5,109 bases of DNA from a virus (IMGVR_UViG_2695420889_000019), one strand, 5' to 3'; numbered from the stretch's first letter, positions 358-1,364 are shown. The notes: generated from the letters alone by a model not told the origin. Numbers and translations are program-made.

Positions 358-879
358 ATGCGCATGAATGTTTTCGAAATGGAAGGGTTTCTTCGCGGGA
401 AATGTGTACCGCGAGATCTGAAAGTGAACGAAACAAATGCTGAGTACCTAGTACGTAAGTTCGACGCGCTTGAAGCTAAATACGAGACGCTGGCGGCGGA
501 GAATGCGCGGCTGAATAAATTTATCGTACAGAGTTGCTATGTGTTTAATGGCGAGCAGGATGAAATATCTGATGCGTATATCTGCGCAGCAGGCGGAGGT
601 ATGCCGCAAATTCCAGCCACCGATGCTTTTCTGGCTGAAATTCGTGCGGAGGCTCGCAACGAGGGAATTAACTATACCGCAAGTCGTCTTGCTGCTGCTT
701 TCAACCACGGATTTATCAATAAGTCTTTACGTGAAGTTTTCGACGTTACGCGCATGATTCTGTCAGCGAAAGAAGAGTTAGCTAATGAACCGCATCCGAT
801 TGATGGCCTGTCCGGTGAATATGCGGAGAAATCCCTTGAAGAATGGGCGGAGCAGATTCGCAAAGGAGGCAACCAGTGA
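358..879 (+). CDS. Lambdoid-prophage early protein, possibly YbcN-family (weak recollection); predicted coiled-coil near the N-terminus
   Basis: 173-codon ORF; GGAG at 346-349 lies 8 nt before ATG 358. An alternative start at ATG 364 (MNVFEMEG...) overlaps the stop of a possible upstream mini-ORF. Its TGA (877-879) overlaps the GTG start of the next gene. My recollection that YbcN-type proteins begin MNVFEMEG is unverified. Confidence 0.7.
   Translation: MRMNVFEMEGFLRGKCVPRDLKVNETNAEYLVRKFDALEAKYETLAAENARLNKFIVQSCYVFNGEQDEISDAYICAAGGGMPQIPATDAFLAEIRAEARNEGINYTASRLAAAFNHGFINKSLREVFDVTRMILSAKEELANEPHPIDGLSGEYAEKSLEEWAEQIRKGGNQ
866..879 (+). repeat. Direct repeat copy 1 of GAGGCAACCAGTGA (RBS plus GTG start plus stop-overlap junction)
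   Basis: Identical 14-mer at 866-879 and 1347-1360, with similar flanks (AAAGGAGGCAACCAGTGAC versus AAAGAGGCAACCAGTGAG). Confidence 0.9.
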
Positions 880-1364
880 CTGGACATGCAGCAATCCTCG
901 ACATGTGCTGTGGCAGTCGCATGTTCTGGTTCGATAAGAATGACGACCGGGCGATATTTAGCGACATCAGAAAGGAAGAGCACACATTATGTGATGGACG
1001 ACGCCTGATAATTAGCCCTGACCTGATAGCAGATTTTCGTGCATTACCATTTGCAGACGCATCGTTTCCGGTTGTTGTATTCGACCCTCCGCATCTTGAG
1101 CGTGTTGGTGATAACGCCTGGATGGGAAAGAAATATGGACGGCTGAATAAAGATACCTGGCGTGATGATTTGCGGCAGGGATTTAAAGAAGCCTTTCGTG
1201 TGTTGTGGCCAAACGGTGTTCTGGTTTTTAAATGGAATGAAACGCAAATACCGGTAAGCCAGATTTTGGCACTGACAGACAGAAAACCTGTTATCGGTCA
1301 ACGAACAGGAAAAAACGATAAAACCAACTGGATTATTTTTATGAAAGAGGCAACCAGTGAGTAA
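876..1364 (+). CDS. Minimal SAM-dependent methyltransferase (162 aa), Rossmann core with G-rich motif I and DPPH motif IV; putative phage orphan DNA methyltransferase
   Basis: GTG 876 is preceded by AAGGAGG (863-869) at 6 nt spacing. Motif I-like ILDMCCGS sits at residues 7-14 and VVVFDPPH ends at residues 70-73 (nt 1083-1094), the spacing and order of class-I MTases such as RsmD or gamma-class N6-adenine enzymes. No room for a target-recognition domain. An in-frame ATG at 843 has a poor RBS and is less likely. Confidence 0.7.
   Translation: MTGHAAILDMCCGSRMFWFDKNDDRAIFSDIRKEEHTLCDGRRLIISPDLIADFRALPFADASFPVVVFDPPHLERVGDNAWMGKKYGRLNKDTWRDDLRQGFKEAFRVLWPNGVLVFKWNETQIPVSQILALTDRKPVIGQRTGKNDKTNWIIFMKEATSE
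1347..1360 (+). repeat. Direct repeat copy 2 of GAGGCAACCAGTGA
   Basis: See copy 1. Together the two copies bracket the methyltransferase ORF exactly. Confidence 0.9.

Follow-up and report, generated by a model that had tools for sequence, protein, structure and literature searches.

How the joints of mosaic phage genomes arise is debated, with homologous exchange at short linkers on one side and random illegitimate joining followed by selection on the other. The idea of a short conserved boundary sequence, or linker, is traced to Susskind and Botstein 1978, Botstein 1980 and Clark et al. 2001 in those parts of PMC3029335 and PMC2839356 that summarise it, and for most boundaries convincing examples have proved elusive (PMC3029335). 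For the insertion of gene 68 in mycobacteriophage Island3, recombination between short repeated sequences at the gene boundary was the authors' own interpretation (PMC3029335). Here we describe a short junction sequence, hereafter J, that stands at both ends of a methyltransferase gene in a viral DNA stretch of 5,109 nucleotides (nt) (IMGVR_UViG_2695420889_000019; the whole stretch is hereafter the window) and that recurs in the accessory segment of many lambdoid prophages. The window is 100% identical to a prophage adjoining dusA in Escherichia coli O145:H28 RM12581, and its + strand runs toward the attachment site. Its two J copies are, with good confidence, instances of a conserved inter-cassette junction at which single genes are exchanged, inserted and deleted.

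The 14-nt sequence GAGGCAACCAGTGA occurs exactly at 866–879 and 1347–1360 on the + strand, with a spacing of 481 nt, in a run of three overlapping genes (lengths in amino acids, aa; ORF, open reading frame; SAM, S-adenosylmethionine):

358–879, + strand: Ea22-like accessory gene, 173 aa (ORF; PHROG 614 across its full length).
852–879, + strand: junction copy 1 with its conserved tail, GCAGATTCGCAAAGGAGGCAACCAGTGA; exact core 866–879.
GTG 876 to TAA 1364, + strand: class I SAM-dependent methyltransferase gene, 162 aa; the cassette.
1344–1360, + strand: junction copy 2, AAAGAGGCAACCAGTGA; exact core 1347–1360.
GTG 1357 to 1668, + strand: gene for a predicted membrane protein, 103 aa (ORF; PHROG 2531); the cassette downstream of copy 2.

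Extended without gaps, the two copies agree at 16 of 17 positions (863–879 against 1344–1360), and with one gap allowed AAAGGAGGCAACCAGTGA pairs with AAAG-AGGCAACCAGTGA at 17 of 18. Copy 1 consists of the Shine–Dalgarno sequence AAGGAGG, the 6-nt spacer CAACCA and GTG 876–878, the methyltransferase start, which overlaps TGA 877–879, the stop of the Ea22-like ORF, as GTGA; the last codons of the Ea22-like gene (..QIRKGGNQ*) are thus encoded by the junction itself. Copy 2 has a weaker GAGG, the same 6-nt spacer and GTG 1357–1359, which starts the membrane protein ORF. The first-pass annotation of the window had already noted that each copy supplies the GTG of the gene downstream behind a Shine–Dalgarno-like sequence and that the two are read in different frames, and both points stand: the Ea22-like gene reads its copy as ..GGNQ*, and the methyltransferase, in a frame shifted relative to copy 1, reads copy 2 as ..KEATSE*. 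It had also placed the stop codon of the upstream gene within each copy, which is so at copy 1 only, since the TGA within copy 2 is out of frame and the methyltransferase stops at TAA 1362–1364, 2–4 nt past the copy, such that the methyltransferase and 103-aa ORFs overlap by 8 nt. Both copies nevertheless span a stop/start gene boundary, as do their counterparts in related loci, with the layout of stop/start coupling at each: a Shine–Dalgarno sequence 5–9 nt before a start that overlaps or abuts the upstream stop.

As a bare repeat the 14-nt match is not significant alone, because an exact direct repeat of at least 14 nt is present in 5.6% of 500 dinucleotide-preserving shuffles of the window; the first-pass statement that such a near-identity is unlikely by chance in 5 kb was too strong. 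What makes the repeat non-random is its identical register with two start codons, together with the comparative evidence below. A second exact direct repeat, CGGCTGAATAAA (12 nt; 15 of 17 when extended; 508–519 and 1140–1151), lies within the Ea22-like and methyltransferase coding regions, is of a length within the shuffle range and is probably due to chance. A resemblance of J to a Chi site was considered and rejected, its reverse complement ACTGGTTG differing from Chi (GCTGGTGG) at two positions when compared by eye.

J, which can be given as AAAGGAGGCAACCA-GTG-A or in full as ...ATTCGC-AAAGGAGG-CAACCA-GTG-A, is a junction of the ea22/exo-xis accessory segment in lambdoid prophages of E. coli, Shigella and Salmonella. 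Scanning IMG/VR for exact GGAGGCAACCAGTGA matched at least 120 stretches, a number to be read beside the chance occurrence of a 15-mer, which is of about the same order in a collection of that size. The layout is the same in about 94% of the 132 J sites that we read, with the tail of an upstream gene, usually ..QLRKGGNQ* or ..NAMWRKGGNQ*, joined to the start of a downstream gene. Downstream we found Ea22-like paralogues (MSKIDYQALRE.., MSEINYQALRE..), the methyltransferase, a 3'-phosphoadenosine-5'-phosphosulfate (PAPS)-reductase-like gene, and genes whose products begin MTVCLIDKRRRG.., MSGKRMTNREL.., M[S/N]NRFYMMCLRET.., MSNSARLQLGF.., MSVTVEKIDVL.. and MSESKCQINGNK... Enough flanking sequence for clustering was available at 124 of the 132 sites, and conservative single-linkage clustering of blastn matches there resolves at least 22 families on the upstream side of exact J and at least 27 on the downstream side, paired in 47 combinations; two or more partners were counted for seven of the upstream and nine of the downstream families, with a maximum of 12 on either side. 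Looser clustering of the flanks gives 38 × 40 families and 89 combinations. That one clonal sequence was merely counted over and over is argued against by this diversity of flanks.

A second sample was drawn independently of the motif, as 80 loci picked solely by homology to the Ea22-like protein of the window. In 44 of them the Ea22-like gene ends in the same 18-mer AAAGGAGGCAACCAGTGA, and 18 more carry one-mismatch variants; the genes that come next in this sample, all behind one Ea22-like family, are of at least 11 kinds. In GenBank, 425 phage records contain a consensus that runs from the Ea22 tail through J into the Ea22 head, among them Shiga toxin (Stx) 1a-, 2a- and 2c-converting phages, mEp phages, HK544 and Salmonella P22-like phages. 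Where contigs hold two exact J copies, the copies bracket single genes: Ea22-like paralogues of 195 aa (584-nt spacing) and 254 aa (761-nt spacing), and small genes of 87 aa (256-nt spacing) and 84 aa (241-nt spacing). The methyltransferase reads the second copy as ..EATSE.., as do the 87-aa and 84-aa genes, which are unrelated, and Ea22-like genes read it as ..GGNQ*; as J is kept in two reading frames, the constraint is on its nucleotide sequence and not on a peptide.

Alleles with and without the methyltransferase differ in a precise way. In two filled loci (L004, a Stx2c phage, and L018) the order is Ea22-like gene, methyltransferase, Ea22-like gene, the last of 228 aa in L004, and in two empty loci (L157 and L219) the same two Ea22-like genes are joined by a single J. 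Removing one J-to-J period (481/482 nt) from L004 yields a sequence found in L157 and L219, where 398 nt spanning the joint are 95.5% identical, and L018 behaves alike; the methyltransferase insertion/deletion is exactly one J-to-J period.

The membrane protein gene gives a view of the other side of the cassette. Near-identical copies of it in viral contigs follow three different genes, namely the methyltransferase, a gene ending ..QSQGGGNQ* and a gene ending ..AAQIRKGGNQ*, and in all three junctions GGAGGCAACCA precedes a start codon, GTG or ATG, whose position does not change. The third arrangement belongs to phage vB_EcoM-720R4 (L001) and E. coli ETEC-2265 (L315), which match the window first over the 28-nt tail of copy 1 (852–879, 92.9% identical), there ending an unrelated gene, and then from 1344 onward. 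Homology to the O157:H7, Stx2c and PhiR42_1 versions ends at 1363–1364, which places the breakpoints against other versions of this prophage backbone at copy 2; in O157:H7 Z1830, where the methyltransferase is a pseudogene, it stops at 1363 and resumes inside the exonuclease gene. What these comparisons show is that J is a place of gene reassortment, and that alleles with and without a gene differ by a single J period exactly.

The cassette gene itself shows the motifs DMCCGS and DPPH in translation and matches PHROG 954, 'DNA methyltransferase' (E = 1.7e-87); matches to Pfam Methyltransf_11/25 are weak and below the gathering threshold, and searches returned neither an NCBIfam match above cutoff nor a sequence relative in the PDB. 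It is full length beside homologues of 157–164 aa. In 80 viral loci the methyltransferase follows at least six and precedes at least eight different genes, and its 3' end always combines a Shine–Dalgarno-like K-E/K-G codon pair with the start of the gene that follows. At the E. coli loci where an Ea22-like gene comes before it, J-type sequence stands at both flanks, and in other lineages it is bracketed by local junctions of a different sequence, AGGGGGCCAAATGA (L051), GAGGCCAGCAATGACTAA (L056) and GTGCAGCATGA (L047). Over 60 distinct junction pairs the longest match between flanks averages 6.8 nt within a locus as against 5.7 nt between loci, a value reached by 0 of 2,000 permutations. This covariation of the two flanks holds only across lineages (L047, L051 and L056). 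Concerted evolution of both copies within E. coli was considered after L004 hinted at parallel A-to-G changes, and was dropped when type-A loci showed no consistent pairing of 5' and 3' variants. All the comparative tests that we ran support the first-pass proposal of a methyltransferase cassette inserted, exchanged or lost by recombination at a short conserved junction.

Many prophage copies of the methyltransferase are inactivated, by TAG at codon 95, TAG at codon 158 or a frameshift (L005); inactivated homologues are listed at L013, L014, L019, L028, L029, L033–L041 and L314. In some lineages outside E. coli (L045, L046, L053, L061 and L064) the methyltransferase ORF measures about 250 aa and is extended at its C terminus; a GTGA overlap connects it to a next gene that begins MREIIVDNFAGG.., resembling motif I of another DNA methyltransferase.

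From these comparisons we propose the following arrangement. Within the early-left operon of lambdoid prophages, J recurs in the accessory (ea22/exo-xis) part, each copy combining the last codons and TGA of the upstream gene, a strong Shine–Dalgarno sequence and, six nt on, a GTG overlapping the stop as GTGA, so that promoterless genes would be strung together by translational coupling; J would thereby work as a ribosome-binding and coupling site. On the + strand we found no promoter-like or terminator-like site between 250 and 2560, the first being a hairpin at 2562–2587, and because the cassette segment has none, expression would most simply come from the early-left transcript by coupling. 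Because one and the same J is found with many unrelated genes, crossing over within it would swap, add or remove exactly one gene without damage to the signals for expression on either side. Short direct repeats are known to give rise to deletions. The 481-nt methyltransferase unit would be one such cassette, set between Ea22-like and membrane-protein cassettes, and its loss from the window would leave the joint CGCAAAGGAGGCAACCAGTGAGTAATTATC; a given event may be a gain or a loss. Between neighbouring Ea22-like paralogues the crossover may also use the conserved tail (about 28–33 nt) and head (about 45 nt), giving roughly 30–80 nt of homology, lengths that would be within reach of phage Rad52-like annealing proteins. 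The exchanges themselves are presumably events of short-homology recombination, whether by phage Red/RecT-type annealing, by RecA or by RecA-independent template switching. Minimal efficient pairing segments are 23–27 bp for Red-beta and 31–34 bp for RecA, and phage recombinases use short or diverged homology (PMC3945230).

A number of observations weigh against J as the site of exchange. The collection of exact-motif sites is by its making biased toward conservation of the motif. The first-pass annotation had envisaged relatives in which the upstream gene is fused directly to the membrane protein gene, and a chimeric query (window 730–879 plus 1361–1510) against 5,426 complete E. coli genomes found the direct Ea22-like/membrane gene fusion in none and the filled arrangement in nine; because this exact fusion was not found, the evidence for empty sites is that of other pairs of genes and of a different gene that has this tail. 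No repeat brackets the methyltransferase in about 45 of its 60 distinct contexts, and loci with LygF before it are J-type at the 3' flank only, from which it follows that the cassette does not require a bracketing repeat. Some downstream genes bring a spacer of their own, AAAGGAGCTGACAAGTGA before MKKMIFVAALL.. and AAAGGAGTTCAGTCATGA before MSIRTEHGF.., so that the universally shared part is the tail with its Shine–Dalgarno sequence (..ATTCGCAAAGGAG), the spacer GCAACCA being common to a large subset of cassettes. Finally, the exact core of 14–18 nt is below the minimal pairing segments of both RecA and Red-beta, and the joint between the methyltransferase and the membrane protein gene offers only 14–17 nt, which calls for exchange at the level of microhomology or for RecA-independent template switching.

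The last three of these points, namely the majority of contexts without a bracketing repeat, the own spacers of some partners and a core below the known minimal pairing segments (PMC3945230), also favour the alternative that survives best, illegitimate recombination followed by selection in the manner of Hendrix. Joints would then form anywhere and those at gene boundaries would survive, J being inherited as the 3' tail of Ea22 or the 5' leader of some genes and never serving as a substrate; the two copies in the window would mean that the methyltransferase once adjoined an Ea22-like gene. In keeping with this, the methyltransferase has a J-like 3' end, AAGGAGGC[A/G]NCCAGTGAG, even where its 5' junction is unrelated, and the 3' copy therefore travels with the gene. 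Random joints, however, predict idiosyncratic junctions, whereas an identical 15–18-mer stands at dozens of unrelated partner pairs, the membrane protein gene has the same junction after three different genes, and filled and empty alleles differ by exactly one J-to-J period. We therefore regard illegitimate joining as an unlikely general explanation, and as possible for individual joints and for the cassettes with their own spacer.

Chance or functional convergence, by which two similar ribosome-binding sites with GTGA overlaps would have come to look alike, has in its favour that the Shine–Dalgarno sequence and GTGA already fix about 10 of the 14 positions, that repeats of this length arise in shuffled windows at the rate given above, and that a Shine–Dalgarno sequence with overlapping stop and start is generic in phage operons. 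It is nonetheless highly improbable, given that the spacer CAACCA is functionally unconstrained and yet unchanged between the two copies and across more than 100 homologous junctions, that the homology of the tail reaches 28 nt, and that the presence/absence allele is exact. The first-pass annotation had suggested a search for the motif at other gene boundaries of the same phage and had named, as grounds for giving up the idea, that it might be a common ribosome-binding-site variant throughout the genome. Allowing three mismatches, we found only these two copies in the window and in the 33-kb prophage locus, which argues that J is no generic variant there, and although the motif is common it is so only at junctions of this prophage region, a confinement that fits the linker model rather than refuting it.

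A dedicated mobile element is about equally improbable. The bracketing repeat would then be a target-site duplication made by a transposase or integrase, or a site for a site-specific recombinase as in integrons, and promoterless single-gene cassettes between a repeated element do have the superficial look of an integron array. Against this, the bracketed 481 nt encode the methyltransferase only and have no terminal inverted repeats; J shows no palindrome or inverted repeat, folds no better than shuffled sequence at either copy (z = 0.02 and −0.31) and has no match in Rfam; no integron-type integrase is annotated in the 33-kb locus; and the only transposase, that of IS600 (1–272), lies outside the bracketed segment and is unrelated to it. 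J is found, moreover, at junctions without the methyltransferase, and the sequence bracketing the methyltransferase follows the junction type of the host lineage.

Going beyond the conserved junction at which single genes are exchanged, J could be an evolved 'plug-and-play' adaptor, a signal for coupled translation whose identity among unrelated accessory genes is kept so that the single-strand-annealing recombinase of the phage itself can shuffle single genes between co-resident prophages. This stronger proposal is tentative, and on present comparisons doubtful. If true, lambdoid phages would have a recombinase-site-free, integron-like cassette array, and the linker hypothesis of Botstein, which illegitimate recombination has largely displaced, would gain its clearest support from nature.

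The remainder of the window frames the variable cassette segment:

1–272: end of IS600 (IS3 family), with the 5' part of orfA at 1–207, − strand.
1668–2240, + strand: Rv2179c-like 3'-5' exonuclease gene (Pfam PF16473, E = 4e-75).
2277–2558, + strand: PrtN-type excisionase gene, with a terminator hairpin afterwards.

The exonuclease gene is the conserved backbone that closes the segment; it has its own, different junction, AGGAGGTGAAGTAATG, and homology to phages that have neither cassette picks up again at 1640–1652. The hairpin at 2562–2587 is strong and GC-rich, with 11 pairs and T/A runs on either side, lies between the convergent excisionase gene and a 57-aa ORF, and is probably a bidirectional terminator. 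At the other end, IS600 splits an HD-hydrolase gene of the yfdR type; from about 270 the 3' part of that gene continues, overlapping the beginning of the Ea22-like gene. The latter had been called YbcN-like in the first-pass annotation and is instead Ea22-like: besides the full-length PHROG 614 match, its homologues are labelled 'ead/Ea22-like family protein', and the domain and NCBIfam profile searches gave no match to YbcN. It is itself mosaic, its first approximately 41 codons together with 270–357 matching the start of the 'EaE' gene of phages vB_EcoM-720R4, SKA5 and PhiR47_1 at 94–99% identity, a homology that breaks off abruptly at 481. In the RefSeq annotation of RM12581 the Ea22-like ORF is reduced to a 135-nt pseudogene fragment and the 103-aa ORF is left without annotation, while each ORF has clear homologues (PHROG 614, PHROG 2531) and is annotated in other genomes; two genes of the window missed or miscalled in RefSeq are thus gained.

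Another variable spot separates the excisionase gene from the dusA attachment site (window 2606–3512, − strand; L003 3645–4689; L002 3667–4868). In the window it contains the 57-aa ORF and a 178-aa ORF (PHROG 4350), in PhiR47_1 a PanT/PanA (Panacea) toxin–antitoxin pair and in SKA5 three other genes. There is no integrase at the dusA-side end of the prophage.

J is a clear instance of a known idea, new and unusually clear as a linker, and not one that would surprise a phage genomicist. Its value lies in being so clean and abundant a case, with one 15–18-nt sequence, dozens of unrelated gene pairs and exact filled and empty alleles, which makes it a defined substrate for measuring short-homology cassette exchange and an aid to interpreting the accessory content that varies among Stx and other prophages. 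A literature string search of limited scope found no paper containing the J sequence. J also bears on a feature of the Ea22 family, all of whose proteins end in K/R-G-E with 'significance unknown' (PMC7093339). The end of lambda ea22 (L233, 29,847–29,900, − strand), ...ATTCGCATCAAAGGAGAGTGAG, has the same ATTCGCA..AAAGGAG..GTGAG skeleton as J. The K/R-G-E tail may be the Shine–Dalgarno/junction sequence or its remnant, and J may in this way explain the conserved K/R-G-x tail of the family.

Compared with described systems, integron arrays (attC, IntI) are alike in their promoterless single-gene cassettes, carried in one orientation with a repeated element between them. Their attC sites, however, are imperfect palindromes that IntI recombines in the form of folded single strands. 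J, in contrast, is neither palindromic nor folding, and no IntI is annotated nearby. Morons in lambdoid prophages likewise present one accessory gene that is present or absent between conserved neighbours, and differ in having their own promoter and terminator and often an opposed orientation (Juhala et al. 2000 and Hendrix et al. 2000, to the extent that they are treated in PMC2839356). The methyltransferase was considered as a moron and rejected: it is co-oriented with both neighbours and overlaps them, and no promoter or terminator of its own was found. In the promoter-early stem-loop (PeSL) cassettes of T4-type phages (Arbiol et al. 2010, PMC2839356), too, a repeated expression signal flanks small accessory genes and coincides with single-gene insertions, deletions and replacements between close relatives; PeSLs combine a promoter with a terminator stem-loop and are transcriptionally insulating, whereas J has neither, shows no fold and couples translation within one operon. 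At the insertion of gene 68 in Island3, the inserted gene has C-terminal codons that are a repeat of those of its upstream neighbour (PMC3029335), a single case with a repeat of about 50 bp as against 14–18 nt at many loci with many partners for J. The lambdoid linkers share with J a short boundary sequence common to unrelated modules, flanking modules that reassort, and placement and regulation that are kept. Unlike them, J is not intergenic and falls within coding sequence, where the final codons of one gene and the start of its successor share it as a Shine–Dalgarno sequence with GTGA coupling; its exact core measures only 15–18 nt, and it serves single-gene accessory cassettes rather than large functional modules.

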